Of a stretch of 64,000 nucleotides of DNA, positions 18,870 through 63,963 are shown one piece after another (the first letter of the stretch is position 1; each line of letters begins with the position of its first letter). The notes beneath the pieces were generated by a model that was not told the origin of the DNA, did no database searches, and saw only the letters and a list, made by a program, of their open reading frames with translations. Location: UHGV virus genome UHGV-0178594; one strand, given 5' to 3'. The translations under genes were made by a program, and so were the position numbers. This stretch comes from a virus.

Positions 18870-18945
18870 TTAGAAAAATAATTTTCTTTAACAAAATCGT
18901 CATGGTGTGTTTTAATCTTAATTTTCTAACACATAACATTAGAAC
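18870..18945. promoter_or_regulatory. Two operator-like palindromes (TTAGAAAAATAATTTTCTTTA at 18870; TTCTAACACATAACATTAGAAC at 18924) upstream of the 18948 gene
   Basis: Members of the recurring GTGTTAGAAAAT-type motif family. Confidence 0.4.
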
Positions 18946-18947
18946 AA

Positions 18948-19340
18948 ATGGCGTACAAGATCTTCGTTTCATACAAAAATGGTGCTAAAAGCCATTCTCT
19001 GAACACAAGCAGCAGATGCCTTGTAGAAGCTCAACTGTCATCAATTCTTACCGAAAGAGATATTCTTTCCCTGGCTGAACGAGTCGTGATTCTGCATTCA
19101 GGAAAGGCTATTCTTGATGTTCCCGCGCTTACCCCGCCTTCTGACGTTTTGGCATCTGTTAAGTGGCCTCAAATGGGCACACCTGTAAGAGTGGAAGATC
19201 CTGTAACCACCACTCTTTATATGCCGAAGTCAGTAAGGGATTGGCTTGCTGCGGTTGGTAATGGGAAGGTCAGCGCGGGGCTTCGGAAGTTAGTGGAAAT
19301 GGCTGATATTCCGGAGCTGAAAAATGCATGGAGACAGTGA
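18948..19340 (+). CDS. Hypothetical protein (early, operator-controlled)
   Basis: 130-aa ORF with ATG at 18948 directly after the operator-like sites. Confidence 0.35.
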   Translation: MAYKIFVSYKNGAKSHSLNTSSRCLVEAQLSSILTERDILSLAERVVILHSGKAILDVPALTPPSDVLASVKWPQMGTPVRVEDPVTTTLYMPKSVRDWLAAVGNGKVSAGLRKLVEMADIPELKNAWRQ

Positions 19341-19810
19341 GTAGAGGAAACATGAGTCACGCGAACCCATCGAAAACACAATATCGTTTAATGCTGGCTA
19401 TCGCGTCAGCTATACCAACCAGCCTGAATCCACCCGCTGGCTATCCCGCTATTGTTGATGATTGTTTTCAGTATTACGGTGAAGACATCCTGAGTCAGTC
19501 TAAGGCACTCAAACAGTTATGCAAGGCAGGCATTCTTCACTGCATAGGCGATCCAGATGATTTTGTAGTCATGCTGGCAGATCGTGACTCTTTTCTGCTG
19601 TCCTGGAAAGCTGGGGCGCGCGAAGCGCGTTTGGGTAATGGTATTGGCTACATCGACTATAGCGATTGTCCGCTGGCATTTGCTGGTGGATATATGCATT
19701 GGCATGAGCGAAATAGAGGCCGTCAGCGCCAGTATCGCTTGAGTGACTTTAACGTCTGTCACGGTTTCGAAGAAGCTGACAGCCAGGACATCTGGCTTCA
19801 GGAGCCTTGA
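19328..19810 (+). CDS. Hypothetical protein
   Basis: 160-aa ORF overlapping the upstream gene end. Confidence 0.35.
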   Translation: METVSRGNMSHANPSKTQYRLMLAIASAIPTSLNPPAGYPAIVDDCFQYYGEDILSQSKALKQLCKAGILHCIGDPDDFVVMLADRDSFLLSWKAGAREARLGNGIGYIDYSDCPLAFAGGYMHWHERNRGRQRQYRLSDFNVCHGFEEADSQDIWLQEP

Positions 19811-20130
19811 TCCCCCTTCCCTTCCCAAATCTCCCTGTTTCTTTGGTTATTCAGTGCGTTTCTTTGGTTGCATTCATCGATAGTGCTGAATAACTGTTCA
19901 GTGTATGCCGGATACTTGTTTAACAGCACAGGCGTGTCCTCTGGCACTATGCAAGGGGTATAATCAATCAGATTTGCCTGCGGTTTGCTGGTGGCTTCTA
20001 CGGTAATTTTCACTGGCACGCTGATTGATTTCTTTTGCCCGTTCCCGCTGCATCCTGATAACGTCATCAGGCACACGCACATCATTAACCCCAGCATTGC
20101 GTAAAGCAGTTTCAAGACGAGTAATTTCAT
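19798..20130 (-). CDS. Outer-membrane lipoprotein, o-spanin candidate (overlapped architecture)
   Basis: Signal sequence ending in lipobox LSGC; reading frame overlaps the 3' half of the i-spanin candidate in another frame. Confidence 0.35.
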   Translation of the reverse strand: MKLLVLKLLYAMLGLMMCVCLMTLSGCSGNGQKKSISVPVKITVEATSKPQANLIDYTPCIVPEDTPVLLNKYPAYTEQLFSTIDECNQRNALNNQRNREIWEGKGDQGS

Positions 20131-24497: not shown

Positions 24498-26912
24498 TTA
24501 ATTGAGCGTGGCTATAATGTCGTTAGCTATCATTCGGGTTGATGCTTTACAGGATACAGAGCGACGGGATGGCATAGGATACACCTTGAAGCCATTGCCA
24601 ACGTAAAGTTCGCGAATGTTAGGCGCACCACTGTTTGTTATCACAATTTTCGCTCCGCGTCTGTGGGCATCCACCAGCAGTGACACCAGCCGTTGTTGAT
24701 CTTCAAACCTAAAGCTATGCCCTGAGTAATTTGTAAATCCGGTAGTGTCGGGCAATGGTTCATAGGGGGGATCGCAGAAAATCACATCATCATTCCCTGC
24801 AGCCTCAATTACACCAGCAAAATCGCCGGACACAAATTCCGAATACTTTGAAATATCGTCAGCCAGGAACGCCTCCATTTCCGCGAGAGGGAAGTGGGGG
24901 GATTTCTGCTTTCCATATCCGACGTTGAACTCTCCTTTACGGTTATAGCGAGTGACGCCATTAAAACAATGACGATTGAGATACAGGAACGCCGCTGCAT
25001 GGTGAAGGGAATCATAAGCACCATTGTTGAATGCATTGCGAACATTCAAAAATGCATCAGCAGAGTTGTAATCCTGAAAAAAACGATATGCCAGTGTGAT
25101 AAGAGAATGCCCTTCACGCTGCAATGTCTGATAGAAGTTAATCAGGTCACCGTTAATATCATTAAGCAGGTTGTGGCGAAAACCTGCATTCGTAAATACG
25201 GAACCGCCACCAACGAATGGTTCTATTAACCGCTTGCCGTGTGGCAGATGCTCAAGCACTGTAGGCAACCCTGAGAATTTACCGCCTACCCATTTGAATA
25301 TTGGGCGCTCATATTCATCCGGAGTCCGGAGTTTTCTTGTGTAGGTAATGGTATTTATTGTTTTTTGCTGTTTATCCGCCACGGTCGCAAGAATGCGACA
25401 CCCAATCCATTGCATAACAGGAACTGCCATGCTGTTGCCGATCGCTTTGTAACGCGGTCCGTCAGCAGCGAGCATCGCGGCCTCTTCTTCGCTTAAATCT
25501 GGATAGTGATTGCGAAGATATGCCAGTTCATCTGAATTAACTTTTTTACGCTTTTCCGTCGGGATCAACGTATGCCCATCAGGAAAACCTTGCAGCCTTT
25601 CACATTCGACAGGGGTAAGACGGCGGACAGCTACTTCTGCGTTTCTTACTTCATAGCAAACAGCTGTTGGATTTTTAGCCATTAGAGATGGTGAAGTATT
25701 CTTAGTTGCAGCATGTTGTGTACCGCTCATACGCTCAGGAAAAGCCAATGTAACAAGATGCTCATGGCTTTCTTGCTCACGTGCCCGCAATGTACCATGC
25801 CCTTCTGACCAAAAACCTGCTCCTGTGCTGCTAAAAACGGCAAGGTCAGTGGCATCTTTAAAATCTCTTGCCTTTACTGTCGATGCGGTTTCATCGTCAA
25901 TATATTCCCCAAATGCTGCCATCCTGAAAGCGTTTACGGCTTTCGTCGATTTCATACCGGGTGGCATGTCAGCGTGTAGGCATGGATTTAGGCTTTCGCC
26001 ACTGATTGCAGCGCCATTTGCAATAATGGCGGAAGCGATTTCCTTCTTTTTTCGGCTCGGCGCAATATTCCGGCGCACGCCTTCGAACTCAAAAAGTACC
26101 GTTGCGGGATCGAGGTCTGTTCGAGCACTTGCGACAACAAACACGCGTCGGCGTCGTTGCGCCACTCCGAAGTATTGGGCATCAAGGATTCTCCAGGCCA
26201 CTTTTCGCTGCGGTCCATAAATACAACCACACTGCGGCCACTTTGGAGCATGGCAACCGGTTTTGACATCCCACCGCCAGAACGAGTTACTTTTTCCTGA
26301 TTCAGGTCGATCACCTGGTTCGAATGGCGCATCTTCTCCAGCCAATCCGGCAAGGAAACATCCGAAGGCGTTATCTGCCGATGACAGGACTCCTGGGACA
26401 TTTTCCCAGACGATAACTGTCGGTTTGAGGAAGGACTCAGACCGTTTGTCGTCAATTGCATTTGCAAGCTCCACATACTTCAAAGTTAGCGCGCCGCGTT
26501 CATCATCAAGCCCACCACGTAAGCCCGCGATACTGAATGCCTGACAAGGGGTTCCTCCGACGAGGACATCCGGGGCTTCAATTTTTCCAGCCCGGACCTT
26601 CTTAGCAAGTTTTGTCATGTCGCCAAGGTTGGTAACATGAGGCCAGTGGTGCGCAAGAACGGCAGACGGAAAAGGCTCAATTTCAGCAAACCAAGCCGGA
26701 CGCATACCCAACGGTTCCCAGGCAATGCTTGCGGCTTCAATTCCACTGCAAACCGAACCATATCGAAGATTAATGCTTTGCTTCACCGCCAATGGCCTCC
26801 ACCAGCGAGCTAAACATCGCGGATAATTCGCTTGTGAACAGAATGAAGTCAGCATCAAATCGCTGGGCAACATCTTCACGGTCGATGTCATCGTTCTGGT
26901 CATAGAGATCAT
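24498..26912 (-). CDS. dmt: Bifunctional DNA methyltransferase: N-terminal C5-cytosine MTase fused to C-terminal Dam-like N6-adenine MTase
   Basis: C5 motifs ..YGSVCSGIEAA.., ..GGTPCQAFSIAG.., ..VIVWENVPG..; Dam motifs ..FKWVGGKF.., ..FLYLNRHCFNG.., ..FCDPPY..; 5' end uncertain (143-bp overlap with rdgC as listed). Confidence 0.8.
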   Translation of the reverse strand: MISMTRTMTSTVKMLPSDLMLTSFCSQANYPRCLARWWRPLAVKQSINLRYGSVCSGIEAASIAWEPLGMRPAWFAEIEPFPSAVLAHHWPHVTNLGDMTKLAKKVRAGKIEAPDVLVGGTPCQAFSIAGLRGGLDDERGALTLKYVELANAIDDKRSESFLKPTVIVWENVPGVLSSADNAFGCFLAGLAGEDAPFEPGDRPESGKSNSFWRWDVKTGCHAPKWPQCGCIYGPQRKVAWRILDAQYFGVAQRRRRVFVVASARTDLDPATVLFEFEGVRRNIAPSRKKKEIASAIIANGAAISGESLNPCLHADMPPGMKSTKAVNAFRMAAFGEYIDDETASTVKARDFKDATDLAVFSSTGAGFWSEGHGTLRAREQESHEHLVTLAFPERMSGTQHAATKNTSPSLMAKNPTAVCYEVRNAEVAVRRLTPVECERLQGFPDGHTLIPTEKRKKVNSDELAYLRNHYPDLSEEEAAMLAADGPRYKAIGNSMAVPVMQWIGCRILATVADKQQKTINTITYTRKLRTPDEYERPIFKWVGGKFSGLPTVLEHLPHGKRLIEPFVGGGSVFTNAGFRHNLLNDINGDLINFYQTLQREGHSLITLAYRFFQDYNSADAFLNVRNAFNNGAYDSLHHAAAFLYLNRHCFNGVTRYNRKGEFNVGYGKQKSPHFPLAEMEAFLADDISKYSEFVSGDFAGVIEAAGNDDVIFCDPPYEPLPDTTGFTNYSGHSFRFEDQQRLVSLLVDAHRRGAKIVITNSGAPNIRELYVGNGFKVYPMPSRRSVSCKASTRMIANDIIATLN

Positions 26913-27675
26913 CGCAAAACGTCAGTGCTTTGATGCTCATGTCATCGTTTAACCTGAAGGTCGCGCGGTCCTGCCAGTTGATTGCAACTGTTGTTGCAAC
27001 TTTTCCGGCTTCAATATGAGTCATTATTTCCTCTGACTGTAGGTCTACTTTCTTGCAACGAACTGCGCCGCCGTCATCGAACAGAGATTTCAATATGGCT
27101 TCTTCGCCTGCTTTAAAGCCTTGAGGAAATGTTGACTTGAACCATTCGGTCATAGTCATTTCGAGCGGTTCTATCGGCGTGAATGGAATCACTGGCAGGC
27201 TGCCAAGTGATTTACGTAAGAGCGCCAGCATTTCTTCAGCTTTTCTGGCGCTGGAAGCTTCTACGAAGACCAGATAGTTGTCGCGATCAATAAGGATTCG
27301 CGACAATGATTTGCGAGTGAATGCGCGAGGCAACAAAGAGTGGAGAACTTCATCCTTCAGGGTGTTTTTTTCCGACTTCTTCAGCTTACGAGATTGCTCA
27401 TTTTCGAGCTTTTCCACTTTTTTCTGCACTTCCTCCTTAATGACATGAGAGGGCAGGAGCTTAATTTCTCGCTGTTGCTGGAGAAGTAGAAAACCGTGGT
27501 ATTCATGGATCAGGTTGTCAGCCAGAACCGGCACCCATCCGACTTTTGCCATTTCTTGTGATGCGCATGGAGTGAATGTGAATTGGCTTAAGGCATCACT
27601 AACGGTGGTTGAGTCCAGTTTAATTTCGCGGGCAAGGCGATAGACGTATATGTTTTTAAAGGCGACTAATCTCAT
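26770..27675 (-). CDS. rdgC: Recombination-associated protein RdgC homologue
   Basis: Near-collinear similarity to remembered E. coli RdgC (..FKNIYVYRL.., ..LLPRAFTR.., ..LRKSLGSLPV.., ..DREDVAQRFDADFIL..); start set at internal ATG 27675. Confidence 0.85.
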   Translation of the reverse strand: MRLVAFKNIYVYRLAREIKLDSTTVSDALSQFTFTPCASQEMAKVGWVPVLADNLIHEYHGFLLLQQQREIKLLPSHVIKEEVQKKVEKLENEQSRKLKKSEKNTLKDEVLHSLLPRAFTRKSLSRILIDRDNYLVFVEASSARKAEEMLALLRKSLGSLPVIPFTPIEPLEMTMTEWFKSTFPQGFKAGEEAILKSLFDDGGAVRCKKVDLQSEEIMTHIEAGKVATTVAINWQDRATFRLNDDMSIKALTFCDDLYDQNDDIDREDVAQRFDADFILFTSELSAMFSSLVEAIGGEAKH

Positions 27676-27688
27676 GTTTCGCAAAACT

Positions 27689-27720
27689 GTGTTAGAAAAT
27701 AAAACTCAATTATCTAACAC
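27689..27720. promoter_or_regulatory. Operator-like palindrome GTGTTAGAAAAT..TATCTAACAC immediately upstream of rdgC-dmt
   Basis: Member of the recurring motif family; 14 bp from the rdgC start. Confidence 0.45.
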
Positions 27721-34591: not shown

Positions 34592-34787
34592 AACAGTTCC
34601 TCACAGTCATAACCTGGGGGGAACTGTATGCAGGGTGTGAAATGCGAGAAACAGACAGGCCACCAGTTCAGGGGGATGTGGTTCATAAATCCCCTCACTG
34701 GTGACAAGTGACTTTCATTAATCTTTATGCGGGGGCCAGCTTCATTGTTTGCTGGCTGTAGATTAAAAATTAAATAGTGTGAATGAC

Positions 34788-37251: not shown

Positions 37252-38178
37252 TTAACTAACAATCCAGTCGGTCGCTGCTACATCTTCTGGCTGTAAATCA
37301 ATCGCACAGATCTTGCCGTCGCGAAAGGTGCGCCAGTTTTTCCGTGAGCCTCTTTCGGGCCATACCCAGACACTTTCAGGCCAGGATGCTCGACGGCATA
37401 CGGTTGCATACCCTGTTTTAATCTTCTCTCTGGCGGTATGCAACGACAGGTTTGCCTTTGGACTTTCAGGCACAGGATGGTGAATGGCCTGAAATAGCCC
37501 CATCCTGGGATGATACCAGCGTTTGTTGCGTGGTTCAGCCTCCGACATAACCTGCTTAAAGGCTTTCCGGAAGGGGGCCAGGGCCACAATGGAGCGTCTC
37601 GCAAGCAAACCATCGGGAGTTAAAAACTCATGCGTATCTGTGGGGATCCGGTAAGCGTTGACCAGGTTGCGGCATTTGGCTTCAGTCAGGCCGCATTTCG
37701 CCGCTAACTGGCGATAGCCAATGTAGCCTTCCGGAATATTGCCTTTCTTTATTTGCTCGACGGTTTCAGCGACTTTGGTCACTTGTGCCGATACTTCGGC
37801 TACCTGGGCATTAACGGCGTTGATCCGGCGTTCATGCTCAAGATGCATTTGCGCCATTTCGGCCAGAATTTCGGCTTTTGATTTTAACGGTCCTCTGGCA
37901 TTCTCCAGTTCGCGCCAGCGGTCCACCAGCCGGGCGGTGAATTCGGGAGAGAGCTGCGCGACGACGATAATGCTATCGCGCTTGCCTTGTTCGCCTTCGA
38001 AGACGTAATAGCTCGCCGGGCGGCCTGCAGTGGGCTTTTCCTCAATTTGAGGAAAAGTTATTACGCCCCGTTCCGCCAGGTGTTCAATGGTGCGTTTAAC
38101 GTTGTCAGGACGCTTACCCACCAGCTCCGCGATCTCAATACTGGTCATTGTCGCTTTTTGAGAGATGGACAGATTCAT
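37252..38178 (-). CDS. Rha-family regulatory protein / antirepressor candidate
   Basis: N-terminal ..MTSIEIAELVGKRPDNVKRTIEHL.. resembles the Rha/antirepressor N-terminal domain; coiled-coil middle. Confidence 0.5.
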   Translation of the reverse strand: MNLSISQKATMTSIEIAELVGKRPDNVKRTIEHLAERGVITFPQIEEKPTAGRPASYYVFEGEQGKRDSIIVVAQLSPEFTARLVDRWRELENARGPLKSKAEILAEMAQMHLEHERRINAVNAQVAEVSAQVTKVAETVEQIKKGNIPEGYIGYRQLAAKCGLTEAKCRNLVNAYRIPTDTHEFLTPDGLLARRSIVALAPFRKAFKQVMSEAEPRNKRWYHPRMGLFQAIHHPVPESPKANLSLHTAREKIKTGYATVCRRASWPESVWVWPERGSRKNWRTFRDGKICAIDLQPEDVAATDWIVS

Positions 38179-38399: not shown

Positions 38400-38640
38400 A
38401 GCCTCCTTTGACTAAGTTAAGGAGCTACCGCGTGAGGTTCCAATCTCAATGGCGGTAGCACTGACTGGGTTGGAACTACCGGCGTCAAAGGGAACCGGCC
38501 TGCCTTTCGGCAGCCCAGCCAGCACTACCATTGATCTCTGAGCTAAACGCTAAGTATGGCTGTGCGATGGCATGACACAAAAAAAGACGCGTTCGGCGTC
38601 TGTGTCGCCTTTGACATTATCCGGGGTTCCAATCCCGGCA
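38400..38640 (-). ncRNA. Structured leader / candidate c4-like antisense regulatory RNA region
   Basis: Hairpins GCTACCGC..GCGGTAGC and CTGCCtttcGGCAG; GGTTCCAATC occurs twice (38427, 38619) with its complement TTGGAAC at 38466. Confidence 0.25.
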
Positions 38641-38706
38641 CCCGTTTTTCTAAGGTGCCGTAGAAATATACCCCACGATAATGCCAGGGCGCAACTGTGT
38701 GTTTTC

Positions 38707-38874: not shown

Positions 38875-39195
38875 TTTGACACCCCCAGCGCGAGTAAAGA
38901 ATGCAGATTATCGCGTGAGTGGCGGACAACGAGTGATGGGAAAAGACAGTAGCTGTTCATAGTGTAGTGACTCCTTGCTTTCGGAGCCGCCATCGACTGT
39001 TCCACGGTCTGGTGGCGGCGCAATAAAGGTTGGAACACCGTGAGTCAACGGGGGCTTTTCAGCCACCTATATTGCACCGCCATTGGTATGGCGGCGGCAA
39101 TCATACGAAAAACCAAACGGTTTGTCTCAAAAAGTTGACCGGTGTACCAATCGGTTGTGAATGTACAACGGCGAATCTCACAATTCAACTTAAAA

Positions 39196-39218
39196 TGTTA
39201 GAAAATTAATTTATCAAT
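39196..39218. promoter_or_regulatory. Operator-like element TGTTAGAAAATTAATTTATCAAT overlapping the ref stop codon
   Basis: Nearly identical to the element overlapping the dre stop codon at 58095. Confidence 0.4.
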
Positions 39219-39823
39219 TCAGTCACCATCTGATACAACGTCATTTCATCAGCATTGTGCCGCCTGAAATCTGCTTTGCCGCCTATTTTTCCATCAGCAT
39301 GAACAGGAACCAACCAGGGGTATTGCTCGCGGATCTCTGCTGGCGCTGCGTGTTGATGGTGCCATTTACACAAAGGGAGGACGTATTTATGCGCGTTCTC
39401 TGCTGTTCTCCCGAAGATGTGGTGCAGGGATACCACAGGGCTATGCTGTCCGTGCATATGGCAGGCAATGCAGGGGAGAGCACCGATGGCAGTTTGTATC
39501 CGGCGCTCATCTGCTGTGAGTGTTCTGCCTTTCAGGCCGCGTGACGCGCGAGTTTTTTTGACAGGAGCAGAAGCGGCCTTCTCTTTTCTTCGCTGTTCAT
39601 ATTGCTTCGCTTTTTCAATTTTCTTTTGCCGATATTCAGGCGATGCGGCTTTTTCTCGCGCACGCTGCTGCTGGCGTTGAGCTTGCTGAAGACGCTTTGC
39701 CCTTTGTTCCTCCCGCCATTTCGGATCAGCCAGTTTTTGCAGGGCTTTTTGTGTCTGTTTCTCCCAATAGCTTTGCTTCATAGAAATACCCGGTTTGTCT
39801 ACATCGCCGCTATGGTTGATCAA
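39206..39823 (-). CDS. ref: Ref-like HNH endonuclease (recombination enhancement function)
   Basis: K/R/Q-rich disordered N-terminal ~80 aa followed by HNH-type core ..CIACHMHG..HHIFGR..CKWHH..; matches the described architecture of P1 Ref. Confidence 0.6.
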   Translation of the reverse strand: MINHSGDVDKPGISMKQSYWEKQTQKALQKLADPKWREEQRAKRLQQAQRQQQRAREKAASPEYRQKKIEKAKQYEQRRKEKAASAPVKKTRASRGLKGRTLTADERRIQTAIGALPCIACHMHGQHSPVVSLHHIFGRTAENAHKYVLPLCKWHHQHAAPAEIREQYPWLVPVHADGKIGGKADFRRHNADEMTLYQMVTELIN

Positions 39824-39825
39824 AT

Positions 39826-39857
39826 GTGTTAGAAAATCAAAATTGATTTTCTAACAC
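39826..39857. promoter_or_regulatory. Near-perfect 32-bp palindrome GTGTTAGAAAATCAAAATTGATTTTCTAACAC directly upstream of ref
   Basis: 15-bp arms are exact reverse complements; 3 bp from the ref start. Confidence 0.55.
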
Positions 39858-39898
39858 AAAATGAAGATACTTTTTTTCAGACGCTATATCAGGAGGTC

Positions 39899-42522: not shown

Positions 42523-43229
42523 AATTTTCCAAATTCTCGGAGTTGGTGAATCGTATTTTGTCCAACAACCACAGCCATCGTCGCGATATGGATGTAACGA
42601 TCGTTGTTCATTCGCCTGGTCGCATCGGTTCAACACCATCAGTTGAGGTTCAGTCAATTCAGGTGGGTTTTGATTGGGATGCCGGGAAAGTGCTGATTTT
42701 CCCAGCACAGCCACTGACCACGCTAACACCAGAACAGATTACTGATATTACGGATAGTGTGCGCAAAGGTCAGTCTTGGCACGCATATCAGGAATACAAG
42801 AAGCATAAAGAGCAGTTGGAAAAATTGTCGATTGAACTGGATGCTGCAAGACGGCGCATTACAGAACTGGAGAGCGAACGCGCGGTGCTGGCGGCGGAGA
42901 ATGCGGAGCTGAAGTCTGTGCACCCTCAACCATTCGGAGCTGAGATGATGAAGGCTCTTGATGCGTATGAGAAGCATCAGGATGAAGTGCCAGAGACTGG
43001 AATGCTCAATGCATTTTTCATCTTGCGCGACAGTATCCGTGTTGACACCCCAGCCACCGATGCTTTCCTGGCTGAAGTACGTGCGCAGGGCGTGGATATG
43101 GCTCGTAACGCGATGATTGATTTTGTCGATGGTGAAGTTGGGCCAAACAAGAACGTTCCGGGGCTGATTAGAGGCGCAGAGATATGCGTAAGTATTGCTG
43201 AACAGCTTCGCAAAGGAGGCAGCCAGTGA
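42519..43229 (+). CDS. Modular coiled-coil protein, family member 3
   Basis: ..[18 protein letters not shown]..; C-terminus ..[10 protein letters not shown]; ATGA overlap with the previous gene. Confidence 0.4.
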
Positions 43230-43501
43230 ATATCGACACGACAATAACGATCGATACGCTCCTAAATACCGGTCTGGCACTTCTCGGTTGGCTTTACATC
43301 ATGTCCCGTACATGGCGATGGCTGGGTTCCATTTTCCTAAAACAGTGGAAAAAACGGCGCAAACAGGAACTACGTCAGAAGGCATTAGAAGCGTTCTATG
43401 ACGCATTTGAGCTTAGCCGCATTGAACCAGGTACAACAGCCAGGATAGCGACAAAAGGCGACCTGATGATAGTGATGTTCAGACAGGAGAAAACAAAATG
43501 A
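43226..43501 (+). CDS. Small membrane protein
   Basis: 91 aa with one TM segment (LALLGWLYIM); GTGA junction start. Confidence 0.3.
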   Translation: MNIDTTITIDTLLNTGLALLGWLYIMSRTWRWLGSIFLKQWKKRRKQELRQKALEAFYDAFELSRIEPGTTARIATKGDLMIVMFRQEKTK

Positions 43502-43722
43502 CAGAACAGACGATGACAAATCGCGAACTTGTTGATGCCGCGATTGAACTTGCTGGCGATTTTTATTCCATGTTGGGTTACGAGCATCGACCTGGTTTTA
43601 AGTATTGGGAGTCACCGCATCCGCAAGAACAACAGGTGTTTGAAATGGCCTGCCGTGCTTTTGAGGTTATTCGCGGTTCTGATGTGATGGAGGCCGTTGC
43701 CGACTTGGAGGATGAAGAGTGA
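43498..43722 (+). CDS. Hypothetical protein
   Basis: 74-aa ORF, 4-bp overlaps on both sides. Confidence 0.3.
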   Translation: MTEQTMTNRELVDAAIELAGDFYSMLGYEHRPGFKYWESPHPQEQQVFEMACRAFEVIRGSDVMEAVADLEDEE

Positions 43723-44030
43723 GCATCATTAAAGAAATGCCGGTAGAACGTGATGAATATGGCTGCTGGACACATCCGGAGTATGAAAAGTTTTGCGCAG
43801 GTCGTGAATATATATCCACTGAGGAATTTGACGCCTGGATGAAGGAAAATAATCTTCAGTGGACTATTCGCAGTATGGATGAAGATCATTTTAATCTGGA
43901 CGCAGATGGTCCCGATATTGCCGCCTGGGAACCAGAGCGACCAGAGGGCGAAGGATGGTTTGTTGGCTCTATTCATGACACTGAAGATGGCCCGGTTTGT
44001 ATCTGGCTGCGGGAGAAGGTTGCCGCATGA
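43719..44030 (+). CDS. Hypothetical protein
   Basis: 103-aa ORF. Confidence 0.3.
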
Positions 44031-44713
44031 CCCAGGCGCTGCATGAAGTGAATTTATATAGCCGTATTGATGGTTCAGGCTACAGAAACATATGGGTTGT
44101 TGGTGATCTGCATGGTTGCTACACCAGATTGATGTCTGAACTTCATCGTGTGGACTTTGACCCGACACAGGATTTACTGATATCGGTTGGCGACCTTATC
44201 GATCGCGGCACCGAAAATGTTGAATGCCTGGAGCTATTGCAGATGCCCTGGTTTCGGTCGGTTATGGGAAACCACGAGCGATTAATGATCGATGCGTTAA
44301 GCCCCGCAGGCAACGTGAATAACTGGCTAATGAATGGCGGCCAATGGTTCTTCATGCTGGACGCTGATCGGGAAATATTAGCCAGGGCGCTGGTGGAGCT
44401 GGTAAAGCGTCTGCCCTATATCATTGAGTTGAACACCGGGCATGAAACTATCGTTATAGCCCATGCCGACTATCCTGATAACGAATACCAGTTTGGTAAA
44501 CCTGTTAGCGATCTCAATGTTACCTGGCGGCGTGAGCGATTTTATGACGCGGTTGATGGTGTTGGTGGAATGATCACTGGTGCAGATAGCTTTATTTTCG
44601 GGCATACGCCAGTAAACAGCCCGAAATCTTTCTGGAACCAGCACTACATAGACACTGGCGCGGTTTTTTGCGGAAATCTGACGCTAAAGCAGGTGAAGGG
44701 AGGCCAGCCGTAA
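44027..44713 (+). CDS. Ser/Thr protein phosphatase (calcineurin-like metallophosphatase, lambda PPase-like)
   Basis: Motifs ..VVGDLHGC.., ..GDLIDRG.., ..GNHE..; start at ATG 44027 inside the listed 43997 ORF. Confidence 0.75.
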
Positions 44714-44744
44714 TCCTGAACACATCGTTTATGCACTCAAAACC

Positions 44745-44775
44745 GTGTTAGAATATTGATTTTAATTTTCTAACA
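44745..44775. promoter_or_regulatory. Operator-like palindrome GTGTTAGAATATTGATTTTAATTTTCTAACA upstream of the 44818 gene
   Basis: Member of the recurring motif family. Confidence 0.45.
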
Positions 44776-44817
44776 TATTATTTTACCGCTCGGAACAAAA
44801 CAGAGTCGGTATACATT

Positions 44818-45813
44818 ATGAGTGCAATAATCACACCTCATTTCGTAAACGGAGCTGGTGTGGCTGTCTTTCCGGTAGACAAGCCCACCAGCAACTACAT
44901 TGGCGCAGGTCGCCGTTTCATTATCTCTCCACTTCCGCGCGAACAGGCTGAAAACACGCCAGATGGCGTAGTGGATCTGAACTATTCGCTGGTTGCCAAC
45001 CAGTCTCTGAAAGCATTTTTTCAAAGCGAGCGCGTATTTAACGCATTAGGCGGTGAAGATTCGCTTGTTCATTGGGTAAGTTCCAATATCCACGATTGCC
45101 AGGCGCACGATAAGCGCGATTGCAGCCACCAGCTAACCACTCATTTCTATAACGGCTCTGCCGTTCGCCTGTGCTGGAAGCATGATGCGGAATACATGAT
45201 GAAGGGGTACGGCAAGCTGGATGACCAGTTATCCCTAAATCGTGCCAACTGGGTTATGAACTGGGCTGCGAGCGAGTTAAAACTACCGCCAGAACGCGAT
45301 CTGAGCATGGTTGAACTCACTTTTTGGGCCATTCGCCGGAATCTGAAAGACGAGCTGCCAGATGAAGCCGGTCGCATTGCATTTTGTCAGCCAAAACAGG
45401 AAATCCCTACCGGCACACTGAAAGAATCGGATATCACCTGGGAGCACAGCACCCGTGAGCTGGTGGACATAACCGCAGAGCAGATCGTCAACCTGTCTGT
45501 AGATGAGGATTCCGGCCTGCTGTATATGCGCCGACCAAAAGCGGTTCTCGGTAAAAGCCCGGCTTATCTCCGGTTTGTGATTTCTCGTCCGTGCATCGGA
45601 TGCGGAGGCAAAGTTAATCACCCGTTCATGTACCGCGCCCGCTCGTTAAACGAACACGATCGCTGGGCCGTTCCTCTTTGCGATGAATGCGCCAGAAGCG
45701 CAGAAAACGATGTCCGGGCATGGGAAAAAGCACATGGCATACGCCTTTACGTAGCCGCCAACCAGCTTTTCGACTTCGCCATCGAGCGCGGAGTGATCAC
45801 GTTCAATAACTGA
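44818..45813 (+). CDS. Hypothetical protein with C-terminal Cys cluster
   Basis: 331 aa; ..RPCIGCGGKVNH..VPLCDEC.. Confidence 0.35.
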   Translation: MSAIITPHFVNGAGVAVFPVDKPTSNYIGAGRRFIISPLPREQAENTPDGVVDLNYSLVANQSLKAFFQSERVFNALGGEDSLVHWVSSNIHDCQAHDKRDCSHQLTTHFYNGSAVRLCWKHDAEYMMKGYGKLDDQLSLNRANWVMNWAASELKLPPERDLSMVELTFWAIRRNLKDELPDEAGRIAFCQPKQEIPTGTLKESDITWEHSTRELVDITAEQIVNLSVDEDSGLLYMRRPKAVLGKSPAYLRFVISRPCIGCGGKVNHPFMYRARSLNEHDRWAVPLCDECARSAENDVRAWEKAHGIRLYVAANQLFDFAIERGVITFNN

Positions 45814-54103: not shown

Positions 54104-54493
54104 ATGGGCTTCCCTTCTCCTGCGGCGGATTATGCAGAGAGCCGTATTTCTCTTGATCAGCAACTAATCAGACATCCTTCTGCGACCTACTTCATGCGGG
54201 CGGCAGACAGCCATCACCGTGAGGGAATATTGCAAGGTGCTTTGCTGGTGGTTGATTCCTCACTTACTCCGGTTGATGGTTCACTGCTTATATGCGCTAT
54301 GGAGGGTGAATATCGCATAAAGAGATACAGGAAGTATCCGCGCCAGCACCTGGAGGATTTAAGCACCGGGAAGAAAGAGGCGTTACCAGTGGATGACGAT
54401 GGATACACGGGCAGTAATGCTGTTTTTGGTGTGATCACTCATGTCATCAATGATGCCCGAAGTGGGGAATTTGATGATTGTCCGGTTATTTAA
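54104..54493 (+). CDS. humD: UmuD'-like protein
   Basis: MGFPSPAADY..LIRHPSATYF.. and ..VFGVITHV.. collinear with the C-terminal part of UmuD, lacking the cleavable N-terminus. Confidence 0.85.
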   Translation: MGFPSPAADYAESRISLDQQLIRHPSATYFMRAADSHHREGILQGALLVVDSSLTPVDGSLLICAMEGEYRIKRYRKYPRQHLEDLSTGKKEALPVDDDGYTGSNAVFGVITHVINDARSGEFDDCPVI

Positions 54494-57696: not shown

Positions 57697-58037
57697 TTGC
57701 GCCCCCTTGCCGGATAGCGCCCGGCATTTGCATCAGGAGCAATGAAGCCGCTGGTGGGGCGAGTGAAAACATGGTTAATTTTCTCGGTCATAGCGCGATA
57801 ATTTTCCTGATAGTGGGCCAGGAGTTTTTCAGCAGCAATGACGGTTACTTTCCGGACGTAGCGTTCAGCTTCCTCCAGATTTCGCCAGTTTTTTTCGAGG
57901 GTAAACACGGGAACGGCATCAAGTCCGGTCATAACACCGAACACCACGACCGCCTGGTCGCGCTTAACGCCCGCAGTGAAGGTTATGGTGTAACCGTCAA
58001 CAGTGAAGCGTTTTGATTCCGTAATACGATTGTGCAA
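57693..58037 (-). CDS. Hypothetical protein downstream of the recombinase gene (cra-like position)
   Basis: 114-aa ORF. Confidence 0.3.
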   Translation of the reverse strand: MHNRITESKRFTVDGYTITFTAGVKRDQAVVVFGVMTGLDAVPVFTLEKNWRNLEEAERYVRKVTVIAAEKLLAHYQENYRAMTEKINHVFTRPTSGFIAPDANAGRYPARGRK

Positions 58038-58094
58038 AGTACCCTCCGCAATAGGCGAGGGTACTTTACATTAAAATGCACTGTCTAAAAAGAT

Positions 58095-58117
58095 TGTTAG
58101 AAAATTAATTTATGAAT
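58095..58117. promoter_or_regulatory. Operator-like element TGTTAGAAAATTAATTTATGAAT overlapping the dre stop codon
   Basis: 19 of 23 positions identical, in one run, to the element at 39196. Confidence 0.4.
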
Positions 58118-59138
58118 CCATCAGGCGACTATTTGCACCAACGGATGCCCCGCTACGGCGCAAATATCGCATAAGTGTTTCGGGCTTTTTCCATGTGCCT
58201 TCCTGCATGATCTCGACCATTGACACCTGTTTCTCAGCCATATCAATTGCCGCACCAACACGCGCACTATGGCCTGTCCACGTCCGGTATCTTCCTTTGT
58301 TCGGCGTGGCATCTCGTTTGTTCAGCAACCCCCAGGCATCGCTGAATATTTTCTCCATTGCAGGTGCAGTAAGGGGAGTTGTCGTGATTCTGGCCTTATT
58401 ACTGCGGTGTATTGGCGGGAATAGCACCGCGTCCGGATGTTGACGAAGTCCGGACACCTCCAGCCAGTCGTTCAGTACGGCGGTAGTGCAACGAGAAAGC
58501 ACCTTATCAAGTCCGGCGGCGGTCGTGATGGTCTTCGTGTGCGAAATATGCAGCGTTACAGTGTCACCTGTTTGGTCCAGATCTCCGACGCGGATGCGCG
58601 AGATTTCTGACATACGCATCAGGGTATTGTATGCCACGAAGAGAAACGCCCGATTGCGCAGGTCCACCAGCCGCTCGGAACGGGACAGCAATACGTCGAG
58701 CAATTTCAGATCATCCCACCGCAACGGTATAGCCTGGCCTGTTCGCTCGCCTTTTTCCGTTGCCGCTTCGCGCCGGATGCGCCGCATGGCCAGAGACACA
58801 CTTTTATCGTCCGACAGCGGCGGGAGGCCACATTGCGAAAGCAGCATGTTAAGCATGGCATAGTGCTTATCAATGGTGGTCGAAGCCAGATCGGCCTCAT
58901 GCAACTGGAGAAGATACTCGCGGGCCATTTCCGACGTAATCGGGAACCAGGGGCGCTGGCGCGAGTTACACCACCGCGCCCAGGAATGAAACACCAGACG
59001 GAGATCACGAAGTGTATTTGGGGCATAAGCTCCCTGGTCGTTCATGAACTGCATAAAGTTTTTTGCAGCTTCCTGGTATTCGGTGCCAATATCGCGCAGA
59101 AAACCACCAGAACCGCCGGAGATAACTAGTTCACCCAT
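58110..59138 (-). CDS. dre: Cre-family tyrosine recombinase (Dre-type)
   Basis: Collinear with remembered Cre (..WFP..DVR.YLL.LQ..GLA..TI..H...LNML.., ..RNLAF..AYNTL.R..EI.RIRV.D.., ..WSGHSARVGAA.DMA..GVS..EIMQ.G.W..); adjacent exact rox site. Confidence 0.85.
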   Translation of the reverse strand: MGELVISGGSGGFLRDIGTEYQEAAKNFMQFMNDQGAYAPNTLRDLRLVFHSWARWCNSRQRPWFPITSEMAREYLLQLHEADLASTTIDKHYAMLNMLLSQCGLPPLSDDKSVSLAMRRIRREAATEKGERTGQAIPLRWDDLKLLDVLLSRSERLVDLRNRAFLFVAYNTLMRMSEISRIRVGDLDQTGDTVTLHISHTKTITTAAGLDKVLSRCTTAVLNDWLEVSGLRQHPDAVLFPPIHRSNKARITTTPLTAPAMEKIFSDAWGLLNKRDATPNKGRYRTWTGHSARVGAAIDMAEKQVSMVEIMQEGTWKKPETLMRYLRRSGASVGANSRLMDS

Positions 59139-59290: not shown

Positions 59291-59322
59291 TAACTTTAAA
59301 TAATGCCAATTATTTAAAGTTA
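59291..59322. other. rox: rox recombination site TAACTTTAAATAATGCCAATTATTTAAAGTTA (14-bp inverted arms, 4-bp spacer)
   Basis: Perfect inverted arms read directly; sequence matches the rox site as I remember it from the Dre/rox system. Confidence 0.85.
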
Positions 59323-59403
59323 GAAATCGGAACTTTTTTCCCAAAAAAACACCGACCAGATCACTTCGCAAATCCGTCAGCCATGCGGTAGCCGCTCCTG
59401 GTT

Positions 59404-59506
59404 ACATTTTCTAATAGGAACAATCAAAAAAAAGCGGTTTTATCCTTTACTCACCTTGTTATTCAGCATAAATTTGTCACAGGACTTTTATGTTAGAAAA
59501 CTAAAT
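59404..59506. promoter_or_regulatory. Two operator-like sites (ACATTTTCTAATAGG at 59404; ATGTTAGAAAACTAAAT at 59490) upstream of the c1-position gene
   Basis: Half-site variants of the recurring motif. Confidence 0.4.
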
Positions 59507-59518
59507 CGAGTAGGAATA

Positions 59519-60556
59519 ATGAGTAAGAAGTCGATCGAGAATGAGTACAAACGGTTCCTGCAAACCGCTGAACGGTGGAAAGAGCTGGTGGTCGCAAACT
59601 CTGTTTTCCATGATACCAGTTATGTTGGCGAGGAATTTCGCCATGTTGCATTAACACATGATCCGGCTGTATTAGAAGAAGCTGAAAAATGCATAGCCGA
59701 ATGGAAAGCCTTTGTTGATCTGTGTCGCAAGGATGATGACAAAGCCTCAAACATTGTTGAGTCGGTTTATTTACCGATCCCATTCATTGTTGAGGATACT
59801 AATCAGAGTACGCACATCGTTATGCAAAGCGCAACCACAACGAGAACATTTACGCGCGAAGACCTGCTGAAAAAATACGATAAAACTATAAAGAAAAGCA
59901 TGAAAAACAGGATATTTTCACAGGTTGTCGGTGCGCTTGAAGAAGAACGCAGATTCTTCGCCGCTGAACGTGAGGGCGAGGTATACCGCGCAAGAAAAGA
60001 AGGTTATACCGATGTGGTGATTACCACCAATATTGAGGGCAACAATGGACTTTCACGCTTCAGAGTGGGTACGCACGGTGCGCTGATCTTTGCAAAAAAA
60101 GCAAACACAGAGATTCCCGTTGTTAACAACGTTGGTGAGCGCCGCACCCTTACCATTTACACTGGCATTAAACCGCTTCCGTGCGGACTTCTCGGCGAAT
60201 TTGACCTTTATCGGGTTCGTGATCTGGAAAAGCAGCAGCCAAGCTACGTCGTGAAGTCATATATCCTGAGAAACATTGATATCCGCAATCAGAGTTTAAA
60301 AAACAAATCAGATAAAATGCTGGCCGAAGCCGATCCAGCCATACACCAGATCGTAAGCCGGAAAATTCAAGAGGCTAAAGATGCAATGGCAAGGCTGGAT
60401 AAAATGGACCTGGAACTACTGGAAGTTATGATTGCCTCCGGCGATGACCTGACAGGCATCCGCCTTACTGAAGCCAGGAAAAAATACGGTAAAAGCGTTG
60501 AAGAACGCTATGGGTACACATTCACACAAACGATGTACGCGGCAAAACTCTGGTAA
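59519..60556 (+). CDS. Immunity repressor candidate by position (c1 locus between rox and pacB); family not recognised
   Basis: 345 aa from ATG 59519 (track lists a TTG-initiated 59456 start); convergent with pacB as c1 is in P1; longer than P1 C1, so identity unproven. Confidence 0.35.
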   Translation: MSKKSIENEYKRFLQTAERWKELVVANSVFHDTSYVGEEFRHVALTHDPAVLEEAEKCIAEWKAFVDLCRKDDDKASNIVESVYLPIPFIVEDTNQSTHIVMQSATTTRTFTREDLLKKYDKTIKKSMKNRIFSQVVGALEEERRFFAAEREGEVYRARKEGYTDVVITTNIEGNNGLSRFRVGTHGALIFAKKANTEIPVVNNVGERRTLTIYTGIKPLPCGLLGEFDLYRVRDLEKQQPSYVVKSYILRNIDIRNQSLKNKSDKMLAEADPAIHQIVSRKIQEAKDAMARLDKMDLELLEVMIASGDDLTGIRLTEARKKYGKSVEERYGYTFTQTMYAAKLW

Positions 60557-62102: not shown

Positions 62103-63466
62103 TAGTCATCCTCCGGCTGGTCTATCGCAATCTCGTCATCTACAGCATCAAAACCGGTATCCCCCGCGTCATAATCACCGTAGATATCAGCCGTGGCGTA
62201 AGGGTCTATATTCAGGTCTTCATCATTGGCCTCAAATTCACCGGCTTTACGTTCTCCGTTCCGGTCGTAATCCCCCATCCCAAGCCTATCAACGATTTTC
62301 GCTACTTCAGCCCGGCGTTGTGCAAGCCATTGTGGGAGTCCAGCTTGTTGCTCGGCAAACTGCTTCGCCTCTTTATCCAGTTGCTCATCATCAACATCGT
62401 TAACGTCAGAAACCGGAGGCTCCAGAAGTGAGATCGCTTTTGCCGCTCGTGCCGCCAGGATAGCCGGGACACTGACGCCCTGCCGCTCGATATATTCAGC
62501 AACACCTATATCATCCAGCTCCTCGCGCTCACGCATACGTATAGCGGCGGCGATAACCCTGGCGGCGCGTGCGTCAGCGCCAATGCGATACTCAATCTCC
62601 TTGCCACGCTGCTCGGCTTGTAGGCGGGCAATCGCCAGTTTTTCTCTGGCCTCAGCCTCCCTGAATGCCTGCTGACGCGCGCCCTGCGCAAGTTTTTCAT
62701 CCCCCTGGCGTAGCTTCTGCTCGTTCTGATAGATGGCTGCCAGCCTGGTGATAAAGTCATTCATGTAGTAGGCCGCATCGCTGATCAGTCCGAGAAGACG
62801 CTGCCCTGGGTGCATCCCCTCTGGCTGTGTATCACCGAGGGCGTCAATCTCTTCCTGTAGTCGCTCCGCTTCCTGGTCAACGATAGCCTGATACTGAATT
62901 GCTCGTTCCTGCGCCATCTGAATCGCAAGTCGTAAATGTTCAGTCGCGCCGTTCTTCATCATCTCACGGGCGACGTTGGTGGCAGGCAAAGTGGTGCTTT
63001 GAGCTGATGAATCAGGGATCATTTGCAATGATCCCTTGTTTCGTTGGGCTTTATCGCTGCTTTTAGGGATCATTTCTCCCATTTCATCACAAAATGATCC
63101 CTTCACATCCTTGTGTATCTTGTTGTTATTACTTGGCTTTTCTTTGTGATCCGCATTTTGTTTTTGCGGCATGGCGCGGAACCGTCCACCAGCCAAAGAT
63201 TTGTCAGTTTTTGTAAATTCTGTGCTTTTATTAGCCTTTTTTTGCTCTTTTTTTGAGCCGGTGGCGCTGCTTTTTGCGCGCTGTTTTGTACTTTTCCCGG
63301 TAGCCTTAGCTTTCGCCTTAACCTCATTTTTTTTCATATTGAGATGCTTTCTGGCGGTGTTAAAGCTGAGGTCATGCTGCTCGCAATATTCTTTTATGGT
63401 GATCCCGGTTTCTTCTCTTAACTCCAGGAACTTAGCTCGATGCGCTTCCCAGTTAATTAACGTCAT
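62102..63466 (-). CDS. Terminase small subunit / pac-recognition protein (PacA-like)
   Basis: N-terminal HTH-like ..ITIKEYCEQHDLSFNTARKHL.., basic linker, GATC-rich pac-like cluster inside the 5' part of the gene. Confidence 0.5.
   Translation of the reverse strand: MTLINWEAHRAKFLELREETGITIKEYCEQHDLSFNTARKHLNMKKNEVKAKAKATGKSTKQRAKSSATGSKKEQKKANKSTEFTKTDKSLAGGRFRAMPQKQNADHKEKPSNNNKIHKDVKGSFCDEMGEMIPKSSDKAQRNKGSLQMIPDSSAQSTTLPATNVAREMMKNGATEHLRLAIQMAQERAIQYQAIVDQEAERLQEEIDALGDTQPEGMHPGQRLLGLISDAAYYMNDFITRLAAIYQNEQKLRQGDEKLAQGARQQAFREAEAREKLAIARLQAEQRGKEIEYRIGADARAARVIAAAIRMREREELDDIGVAEYIERQGVSVPAILAARAAKAISLLEPPVSDVNDVDDEQLDKEAKQFAEQQAGLPQWLAQRRAEVAKIVDRLGMGDYDRNGERKAGEFEANDEDLNIDPYATADIYGDYDAGDTGFDAVDDEIAIDQPEDD
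63014..63102. other. pac-like cluster: four GGGATCATT / AATGATCCC elements with GATC sites at 63017, 63030, 63068, 63096
   Basis: Read directly; resembles the Dam-sensitive hexamer organisation of the P1 pac site. Confidence 0.4.
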
Positions 63467-63855
63467 AGGGAAGCCTCACGTTTTTTCACAGCGGCGTTCC
63501 ATAGCTGGTTAGTCATCGCCACCAACTGACGCTGCTCCTTTCGTAATTGAGCTTCTATCTTTCGGTTGGTGTTTTTCACCAACAGCCGACCGAATTCAGG
63601 AGTGCGCCCGCGCACCTTGAACTGGTATCCATTCAGGCCATGTAACCAATATTTCCGGGGGTATACGCGGTCGTCTATTTCGCAAATGGCACGACTGGAA
63701 CGAACAAAAAAACGTATGATGTTATTTACGTTTACGCGCGACACATGAAGGTGAGGATATTGTGCTTTTGCACGGCTGGTGATTTCGGTGACCGTCAGAT
63801 AGCAGTTAGCCCTGATCATGATATCCGCTATTTCGGCGCTACTGATTTGCTCCAT
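63463..63855 (-). CDS. Hypothetical protein upstream of pacA (position of P1 lpa)
   Basis: 130-aa ORF; positional inference only. Confidence 0.25.
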   Translation of the reverse strand: MEQISSAEIADIMIRANCYLTVTEITSRAKAQYPHLHVSRVNVNNIIRFFVRSSRAICEIDDRVYPRKYWLHGLNGYQFKVRGRTPEFGRLLVKNTNRKIEAQLRKEQRQLVAMTNQLWNAAVKKREASL

Positions 63856-63934
63856 TTATCCCCCGGATAGAAAAAGACCGAGGGGATGATAATCAGCTTG
63901 TTAATACTGAGAAGACTGTCAAAAACACGATCTA

Positions 63935-63963
63935 TTAGAAAATTAATATCAATTTGCTAACAC
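63935..63963. promoter_or_regulatory. Operator-like site TTAGAAAATTAATATCAATTTGCTAACAC upstream of the pac operon
   Basis: Member of the recurring motif family. Confidence 0.4.

Follow-up and report, generated by a model that had tools for sequence, protein, structure and literature searches.

Which protein, if any, reads the short palindromic motif that recurs at the starts of gene blocks in this viral DNA, and does the family amount to the dispersed operator set of an immunity repressor? The window (the whole 64,000-nt stretch of DNA analyzed here) is part of a P1-family plasmid prophage of E. coli that is D6-like and shares its gene order with phage D6 (MF356679, AY753669) at 82 to 89% DNA identity. 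The initial annotation listed ten positions with a common core and proposed an immunity regulon laid out like that of P1 C1. We found a copy of the motif at all ten positions, with coordinates slightly shifted, and the family very likely represents the operators of a C1-type master repressor encoded within the window at 59519–60556, as judged from sequence.

On extension, the repeated GTGTTAGAAAAT motif resolved into an asymmetric half-site of ∼18 to 19 bp, nTGTTAGAAAATtAAnnT, in which the G/C-containing core TGTTAG is invariant among copies. The window holds 14 half-sites across eight intergenic regions: four inverted pairs (12-bp arms and an 8-bp spacer, 32 bp in total) and six singles, one of them weak. 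The frequency of the motif was far above expectation: with at most one mismatch, the 12-mer core matched 11 times in the window versus 0.50 expected, a count that none of 100 shuffles reached, and the 11-mer TGTTAGAAAAT matched 15 times versus 1.67 expected. A 19-nt position weight matrix (PWM) with a score threshold of at least 13 returned 14 window matches versus 0.66 in mononucleotide shuffles, a count that is circular because the matrix was trained on the window itself. The weightier checks are therefore those outside the training data, namely, 14 matches in D6, 7 more in the complete, 99%-identical plasmid NZ_LR890273 beyond the window, and a single, chance-level match in P1. Most window sites scored between 20 and 28. 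All eight regions fall within the 19% of the window that is free of ATG-initiated open reading frames (ORFs) of at least 90 amino acids, apart from two small overlaps: the ref stop codon is overlapped by 1 base, and an antisense ORF at the c1 start, which we regard as spurious, by 9 bases.

The names first given to the genes beside these sites (Ref nuclease, RdgC, Dcm plus Dam methyltransferase, Lpa, a C1 homologue, and PacA/B) all agreed with our assignments. Two predicted operators bracket the promoter of c1, the 345-amino-acid candidate repressor gene (59519–60556, plus strand). The distal one, CTATTAGAAAAT (59399–59417, minus strand, PWM score 15.1; previously placed at 59404), carries two mismatches and lies ∼30 bp upstream of the −35 element of the conserved c1 promoter. 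The proximal one, ATGTTAGAAAAC (59490–59508, plus strand, PWM score 20.5), sits between the TTTACT-17-TAAATT promoter (59446/59469) and the c1 ATG, adjoining the ribosome-binding site, and is predicted to be the autoregulation site of c1.

Each of the four pairs has half-sites on both strands. The pair at 63932–63963 (previously 63935; D6 counterpart at 4631) lies 77 bp upstream of lpa (63463–63855, minus strand, PF25716), the head of lpa-pacA-pacB. Its position corresponds to that of P1 Olpa, which the P1 annotation places 71 bp from the lpa ATG. The bivalent site GTGTTAGAAAATaaaactcaATTATCTAACAC at 27689–27720 (D6 counterpart at 64115–64146) lies 13 bp upstream of rdgC (26770–27675, minus strand; RdgC confirmed), which is followed by dmt, a dcm-dam fusion (24498–26912, minus strand; methylase domains confirmed); on the same positional grounds, it corresponds to P1 Odmt. 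Between ref (39206–39781, minus strand) and the plus-strand operon running from 39899 to ppp (43997–44713) lies the pair at 39826–39857, which was described as a near-perfect 32-bp palindrome and indeed has perfect 12-bp arms and symmetry at 30 of 32 positions. Its center holds a −35-like TTGATT, with GATACT 17 nt on, and at the equivalent position in D6 the right half alone is intact; we take this pair, by position, as the counterpart of both Oref and Oppp of P1. The fourth pair, at 44745–44776 (D6 counterpart at 80708–80739), comes with a TTGATT-17-TATTTT match and lies 41 bp upstream of a DUF968 (pdcB-like) gene (44818–45813) and the operon behind it.

The remaining four half-sites are singles. 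One of these, at 39195–39213 (plus strand, PWM score 27.4; D6 counterpart at 75979), overlies the stop codon of ref and precedes the minus-strand immI operon, the second immunity module, which comprises an isrK-like RNA (38580–38658, minus strand), a C4 antisense RNA (38448–38535, minus strand; Rfam RF01695, 77 bits versus a gathering score of 45), icd, and ant. A TTGAAT-17-TACATT match lies 6 nt downstream of the site on the minus strand, and in position the site corresponds to P1 Oc4. A second, at 58094–58112 (plus strand, PWM score 26.0), adjoins the dre stop codon upstream of a minus-strand block running from 58037 to 55248 (dut, isaA-like), with a GC-rich hairpin between the site and the next ORF; it has a D6 counterpart at 89947 and occurs at the same place in the elements L014, L015, L050, and L051. 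Contrary to the placement first described, neither of these two sites marks an obvious operon start; each lies on or just past the stop codon of the gene before it. The last two singles share one region. The stronger (18914–18932, core 18921–18932, previously 18924; minus strand, PWM score 28.0; D6 ortholog at 54200–54218) lies between the major capsid gene (17091–18788, minus strand) and the ORF at 18948–19340 (plus strand), spanning the −10 element of a promoter recognized by eye (TTAACA-17-TTTAAT) together with its predicted start site. The weaker, GCATTAGAAAAATAATTTT (18867–18885, plus strand, PWM score 16.0), lies directly upstream of the −35-like hexamer TTAACA. The copy listed at 18870 is thus present but marginal: its core, GCATTAGAAAAA, has three mismatches to the 12-mer, and it is found in NZ_LR890273 but falls below threshold in D6. 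It may be an auxiliary half-site.

Consensus promoters overlapping the motif sites are weak. A sigma-70 scan at 9/12 found no promoter overlapping the operators in 39000–45000, and its sole match near lpa begins 18 nt past the operator; the promoter-operator overlaps given above are 8/12 matches or readings by eye.

The product of 59519–60556, nominated in the initial annotation as the candidate repressor, is by sequence comparison a remote, full-length homologue of P1 C1. The two proteins share ∼20% identity over 291 columns (pairwise blastp E value, 2e-5), and hhalign aligned residues 8 to 240 with residues 9 to 245 of P1 C1 over 227 columns (probability 96.4%, E value 1e-9). We call this homology remote because tblastn of the window protein against the whole P1 genome returned nothing at an E value of ≤1e-3. 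The window C1 belongs to phrog_1678, and its homologues bear the precomputed Pfam family PF27008 (Phage_P7_repressor_C1). Searches of the protein itself against a local copy of Pfam, PDB sequences, and BFVD structures yielded no match, and a related-locus search found no relatives among representative genomes. The D6 C1 is 80% identical to that of the window.

The motif is conserved in D6 and in more distant elements. The 14 D6 sites share the window consensus and occupy orthologous positions, at c1, lpa, hrdC, the pdcB-like gene, the ref stop, ref|orf88, and gene 23|orf52 and downstream of dre. Several D6 pairs are less symmetric than those of the window, with degenerate distal halves at ref|orf88 and lpa, and dmt is split in D6, unlike in the window; the rox site is identical in the two. 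In the GenBank records of D6, rox and cix sites are marked, and no operators are. NZ_LR890273 carries 21 sites in total, among them sites at pmgS, at repL, and at a second copy of icd-ant; those at repL and pmgS, which lie beyond the window, are present in D6 as well. Downstream of rox, the cre-c1 spacer is otherwise unalignable among relatives, and the islands of conservation there coincide with the two operator cores and with the −35 and −10 elements of c1; L015 lacks the −35/−10 islands. Within the same spacer, rox and a block beside cre are likewise conserved. The island TTTTCTAA at 59399 is kept in elements whose C1 proteins are 43 to 100% identical to that of the window, whereas TTTATGTTAGAAAA at 59490 is conserved in the window, D6, L013, and L014 and is shifted in L015. 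In the divergent elements, cores of the form TGTTAGAAAA also precede lpa and follow cre. The c1-flanking cores thus persist where C1 is 43 to 50% identical; because the core is almost unchanged in these divergent relatives, covariation between protein and site that would tie the site to C1 is scant. Conservation reaches deepest at the two sites around the c1 promoter, and single half-sites are no less conserved than pairs.

These comparisons also bear on immunity type. A distinct immunity specificity had been proposed for the element; it is distinct from that of P1 but common to D6. Since the same consensus stands at the same places and the C1 proteins are 80% identical, we assign the window, from sequence, to the D6 immunity type and not to a new one. 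Full-text searches of a literature that did not include the D6 genome and D6 immC papers turned up no relevant account of the motif or of D6 operators.

Could another regulator encoded by the element read the motif in place of C1? We consider this unlikely. The element does encode further DNA-binding proteins, including a Rha-type antirepressor and helix-turn-helix proteins, and a protein such as Lpa (PF25716), acting at late promoters, or the Rha-family winged-helix protein, an Rha/Ant-type candidate, is available within the window. The window also has only one exact match to the P1-type late-promoter box, so the late-promoter signal of this lineage may be a different one. However, the motif adjoins early and lysogeny genes that are under C1 control in P1 (c1, lpa, c4-ant, ref, and dmt), and the sites kept most deeply are those around the c1 promoter itself. 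The structural first 18 kb of the window has no site, other structural-gene promoters lack one, and the 18914 site beside the capsid gene faces the divergent ORF at 18948. Late promoters of P1 use a different box, AAGTGACTT. Motif sites as late promoters were rejected: at no site in the window does the P1 −22 box AAGTGACTT plus −10 element coincide with the motif.

It is less probable still that the motif is a host-factor site or a structural feature of DNA at phage promoters, such as an AT-rich bend, a nucleoid-protein site, or a terminator-like palindrome. The motif is AT rich, the pairs are palindromic, and a −35-like TTGAT(T/A) is central in three of the four pairs. Nevertheless, the exact 30-nt paired pattern was found in seven viral contigs only, four of which encode a C1 homologue (on the contig itself or on a sister contig from that genome), and in none of 185,579 representative bacterial and archaeal genomes, a distribution that disfavors a host factor. 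An invariant TGTTAG core is unlike conservation driven by composition, singles and pairs are retained alike, and the arms have too few G-C pairs for a stable terminator stem. It is equally improbable that the motif is inherited repeat DNA, left by the duplication of promoter cassettes and read by no protein of its own. This would fit the two singles at 39195 and 58094, which agree at 18 of the 19 bases of the PWM span and have a similar downstream layout, but across the family the likeness between copies ends at the borders of the ∼19-bp unit, the flanks and 8-bp pair centers differ, and the cores persist where the surrounding spacer has diverged past alignment.

We return to the C1-type repressor. 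From the existence, enrichment, placement, and conservation of the motif and the C1 homology of the encoded protein, all directly established, we infer that C1 binds these sites and that binding represses. The operator unit would be the asymmetric ∼18- to 19-bp half-site, occupied by one repressor molecule, and C1 probably binds it as a monomer, by analogy with P1 C1. Two facing half-sites whose AT-rich tails overlap by 6 bp would form the 32-bp bivalent operator. In the lysogen, C1 on its sites would silence or throttle lpa, which encodes the late-gene activator, together with the packaging genes. It would act likewise on ref, rdgC-dmt, the c4-icd-ant operon of the antirepressor, the early operons of ppp and DUF968, and the dut block; beyond the window, repL and pmgS would come under C1 as well. 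Through the two sites flanking its promoter, C1 would limit its own synthesis.

The motif provides a testable operator map for D6-like plasmid prophages, which are common in plasmid collections of E. coli, Salmonella, and Shigella and have been reported alongside resistance plasmids (PMC6799933). The consensus could be used to predict mutual immunity among such elements and to help design inducible or immunity-defective derivatives. The D6 C1/operator pair could serve as a repressor system orthogonal to that of P1, as Dre/rox does relative to Cre/lox. Two operator sets with repressors 20% identical, under one gene layout, also present a case of specificity drift under a fixed regulon.

The closest comparison is with the ImmC system of P1 and P7; the C1 protein of P1 binds 22 dispersed asymmetric 17-bp operators (PMC8546580). 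In both P1/P7 and D6-type elements, ∼20 asymmetric operators are dispersed over a plasmid prophage of ∼90 kb, and the single master repressors of P1/P7 and the window are homologous over ∼230 residues. The genes under C1 control in P1 match those predicted to be controlled here (c1, lpa, c4-ant, ref, the ppp operon, hrdC-dmt, repL, and pmgR/S). Annotated P1 operators with matching positions in the window or its relatives are Oc1, Olpa, Oc4, Oref, Oppp, Odmt, OrepL, and OpmgR; within the window, the sites flank c1, lpa-pacAB, c4-icd-ant, ref, the ppp operon, and rdgC-dmt just as the annotated P1 operators do. Two operators bracket the c1 promoter in each, and the C4 antisense RNA module is present in each, with icd and ant downstream of C4 and, in the window, the 39195 site upstream. 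Both use single operators together with inverted paired ones in which the two units overlap by 6 bp, as in the divalent Obanab of the P1 annotation. The layout proposed at the outset is supported: the half-sites are asymmetric and intergenic, lie beside genes that carry operators in P1, flank a C1 homologue, and are kept in relatives.

The two systems also differ. Paired operators measure 32 bp in the window versus 28 bp in P1 and account for four of the eight regions, whereas the listed P1 operators include a single one annotated as divalent; the window repressor has an extra C-terminal helical region of ∼100 residues relative to P1 C1. The operator sequences differ, as had been claimed: the P1 consensus ATTGCTCTAATAAATTT is absent from the window at up to three mismatches, with one match at four mismatches that lies off the motif sites, and the window core is absent from the P1 genome. 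The similarity between the P1 and window PWMs (11.5) shows no excess over a shuffled-column null (11.2 ± 1.3), and we accordingly do not claim homology of the operator sequences. By eye, a TTAGA/TCTAA core is common to P1, the D6 type, and the elements L056 and L057; aligning P1 with D6-type sites by the core or by the dyad gives opposite orientations of the paired sites. Searches by tblastn for the P1 co-repressor Lxc and antirepressor Coi in the window, NZ_LR890273, and D6 found no homologue (best E value, 1.2), and the rox-c1 spacer is too short for coi.

Among PDB structures, the sole fold match to the predicted structure of the window C1 (pLDDT 81) was the Tus replication terminator, with low TM-scores of 0.34 to 0.41 for this predicted model. 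The C1 profile gave no signal against E. coli Tus in hhalign (probability 0.2%) and retrieved nothing from PDB sequences. Tus binds its asymmetric site as a monomer, and we counted the Tus-like predicted fold toward the assignment of the operators to C1; Tus-Ter arrests replication forks, whereas the window C1 is predicted to repress transcription. As a tentative proposal that we think somewhat doubtful, the C1-type repressors of P1, P7, D6, and the window might be Tus-fold monomers that clamp asymmetric ∼19-bp sites. In this scheme, the D6 branch would have retained a TTAGA(A) core contact while its flanks took on a new specificity, and its added C-terminal helical domain may pair two monomers on 32-bp operators and stand in for the missing Lxc. 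If true, this would join a phage immunity repressor family to a bacterial replication-terminator protein, a link for which we found no precedent in the searchable literature.

A further parallel comes from the mycobacteriophage L5/L1 repressor. To our knowledge, it has no sequence or fold kinship with the window C1, and its sites have another length and sequence. What it has in common with the window is one repressor at many asymmetric sites genome-wide, in keeping with the binding of mycobacteriophage repressors to multiple asymmetric operators described in one report (PMC1934351).

Allowing at most one mismatch, we detected 11 matches to GTGTTAGAAAAT in the window versus 0.50 expected, a number reached in 0 of 100 shuffles, and the 11-mer TGTTAGAAAAT matched 15 times versus 1.67 expected. 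The repeated motif family proposed in the initial annotation therefore exists, its frequency being far above that of shuffles rather than no higher than expected. When the copies were aligned, conservation extended beyond the core on one side only, defining a unit of ∼18 to 19 bp, nTGTTAGAAAATtAAnnT, in which T2, T4, T5, A6, G7, A11, and A15 did not vary among 13 copies. At four loci (27689-27720, 39826-39857, 44745-44776, and 63932-63963), two copies form an inverted pair, with arms of 12 bp around an 8-bp center and a 6-bp overlap between the 19-nt units. These pairs and five clear single units (18914-18932, 39195-39213, 58094-58112, 59399-59417, and 59490-59508) stand from the sites first listed; the copy at 18867-18885 is weak. 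Every copy lies within the 19% of the window lacking ATG-initiated ORFs of at least 90 amino acids, a placement with a chance of ∼2 × 10−6 for eight independent regions.

The candidate-repressor region and the 39- to 45-kb block share 82 to 89% DNA identity with Escherichia phage D6, a P1-related plasmid prophage whose annotation takes its gene names from P1 counterparts, and 97 to 99% with several E. coli plasmids (best, NZ_LR890273, 92.8 kb). Pfam and Rfam searches confirmed the identity of the genes adjoining the motif. On the minus strand, Pfam identified a Ref nuclease (39206-39781), RdgC (26770-27675), an 804-amino-acid Dcm+Dam methyltransferase (24498-26912), Lpa (63463-63855), a Rha-type antirepressor (37252-38178), and a Cre/Dre-type recombinase (58110-59138); on the plus strand, it identified a phosphatase (43997-44713) and a DUF968 protein (44818-45813). 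The methyltransferase is a single fusion like P1 Dmt, whereas two separate genes (orf64 and orf63) are annotated in D6. The C4 antisense RNA (RF01695; 38448-38535, minus strand) is preceded by an isrK-like RNA (RF01394), the two spanning 38448-38658 upstream of icd and the antirepressor gene.

Wherever a promoter was readable, a unit sits over or beside it. The 18914 unit covers the −10 element and start site of TTAACA-17-TTTAAT; at 27689-27720, a GATAAT −10 element falls within the distal unit, with the rdgC start 13 bp past the pair; and TTGATT −35 elements lie at the center of the 39826 and 44745 pairs. The 39195 unit is 6 nt upstream of TTGAAT-17-TACATT, directed into the C4-icd-ant operon; the position of P1 Oc4, immediately before its −35 element, is similar. 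These putative promoter assignments are weak: a sigma-70 scan at 9 of 12 matches did not recover any, and its sole match at lpa begins 18 nt beyond the operator. Between the 58094 unit and the TTG start codon of the ORF at 58037 lies a GC-rich hairpin (58036-58067, minus strand; GTACCCTCGC...GCGGAGGGTAC), which might be the dre terminator or part of the leader of the downstream block. Because the promoter calls are weak and the target at 58094 is ambiguous, we infer repression at these sites from position and P1 precedent.

The strongest evidence that the motif is functional and tied to c1, the candidate repressor gene, came from aligning the spacer between the recombinase gene and c1 in the window, in D6, and in three related elements whose C1 proteins are 43 to 50% identical (L013 to L015). 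The block adjoining the recombinase gene and the rox site were conserved; downstream of rox, conservation was limited to a few islands, the remaining spacer being unalignable. One island, TTTTCTAA, is the distal unit (59406-59417), and another, TTTATGTTAGAAAA, is the proximal unit, which directly precedes the ribosome-binding site; the units are oriented toward one another, ∼83 bp apart. Also conserved were TTTACT and TAAATT, 17 bp apart at 59446 and 59469, a plausible c1 promoter. Two units around this promoter parallel the P1 operators bracketing c1. The 32-bp sequence TAACTTTAAATAATGCCAATTATTTAAAGTTA (59291-59322) is identical in D6, where the records annotate the Dre rox site; in the related element L056, rox has one change in the central spacer (GCC to GCT). 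An 11/12 sigma-70 match (TTGGCA-16-TATAAT, minus strand, 59309 to 59282) overlaps rox and points into the recombinase gene.

A 19-nt position weight matrix (PWM) trained on the window copies detected 14 sites in D6, 21 in complete NZ_LR890273 (including 7 outside the window-covered part), 1 in P1, and 0.66 on average in shuffles. Every window locus has an orthologous counterpart in D6, where sites lie before c1, lpa, hrdC, and a pdcB-like gene, on the ref stop codon, after dre, between ref and orf88, and between gene 23 and orf52. Outside the window, sites in relatives precede repL and a second icd-antirepressor copy and also lie around pmgS. Seven viral contigs contained an exact match to the 30-nt paired pattern, and four of these also have a C1 homologue, either on the contig itself or on a sister contig from that genome; representative genomes of 185,579 species contained no match. 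Both D6 records already annotate c1 as a C1 homologue and include rox and cix sites, with no operators; no description of the motif was found in the searchable literature.

The candidate repressor C1 (59519-60556, plus strand, 345 amino acids) is 80% identical to D6 C1, and its database homologues (43 to 97% identity) belong to Pfam PF27008, Phage_P7_repressor_C1. A tblastn search of the P1 genome with C1 gave no match at an E value of ≤1e-3. Pairwise comparison with P1 C1 gave 20% identity (E, 2e-5) over nearly the full length of the latter, and in a ten-member family profile residues 8-240 aligned to P1 C1 residues 9-245 (probability, 96.4%). Relative to P1 C1, the protein has ∼100 additional C-terminal residues, predicted to be helical. 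An AlphaFold2 model from a ten-sequence alignment (mean pLDDT, 81) may resemble the fold of E. coli Tus, at low TM-scores; no C1-Tus sequence similarity was found, a BFVD search with C1 gave no match, and a literature search found no paper linking the two. Monomeric Tus binds an asymmetric site, and such binding would fit asymmetric operators; we consider the predicted likeness a lead with moderate confidence. Each asymmetric unit would probably be bound by one C1 molecule, and a pair by two side by side.

P1 C1 is reported to bind 22 dispersed operators with an asymmetric 17-bp consensus, ATTGCTCTAATAAATTT, with Lxc acting as a helper and Coi and Ant as antagonists (PMC8546580). We found no homologues of Lxc or Coi in the window, NZ_LR890273, or D6 (tblastn, E > 1), and the 196 bp separating rox from c1 are too few to hold a coi gene. 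Both modulators seem to be missing from the D6-type circuit, while its C1 has an extra C-terminal domain. The P1 consensus had no match in the window and the new core none in P1, and the similarity of the two PWMs was not above shuffled-column controls. A TTAGA/TCTAA pentamer is common to the P1 motif, the window motif, and variant repeats of distant relatives, a likeness taken as a lead only. These repeats, CGTTAGAAAA in L056 (4894-4903 and 9922-9931; C1 40% identical) and TTATTTAGAA three times in L057 (341-350, 2379-2388, and 3306-3315; C1 28% identical), may represent additional operator types of the C1 family. In P1 itself, GTGTTAGATAAA (89892-89903; 41892-41903 in the P1 sequence L005) closely matches the D6-type core, directly abuts Olpa (89904-89920), and could be a relic, an unrecognized second half-site, or chance. 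The only exact P1 late-promoter −22 box in the window, AAGTGACTT (34706-34714), lies within a small palindrome flanked by gene 26-like and mat-like genes; in P1, LP26/LPpmgL is found beside gene 26.

In the P1 record, annotated C1 operators lie at ref, mat, ssb, c4, repL, rlf, dmt, ban, gene 26, ppp, pmgR (two), pmgT, and lpa, and we found extra consensus copies near P1 c1. The window has sites at c1, lpa, c4, ref, the ppp operon, and hrdC-dmt, supporting the C1-like dispersed layout proposed initially; relatives add repL and pmgR/S, and together this site set is the same regulon as that of P1 C1. Obanab, the sole annotated divalent operator of P1, spans 28 bp and is built from two inverted 17-bp units with a 6-bp overlap; the two inverted 19-bp units of each window pair overlap to the same extent (32 bp). 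The distinct specificity first suggested holds relative to P1, whose consensus is absent, but the motif set, judged by sequence, appears to be the set of operators belonging to the D6 immunity type. This kind of system is well known: the operator set is real and useful, yet no surprise to a P1 specialist.
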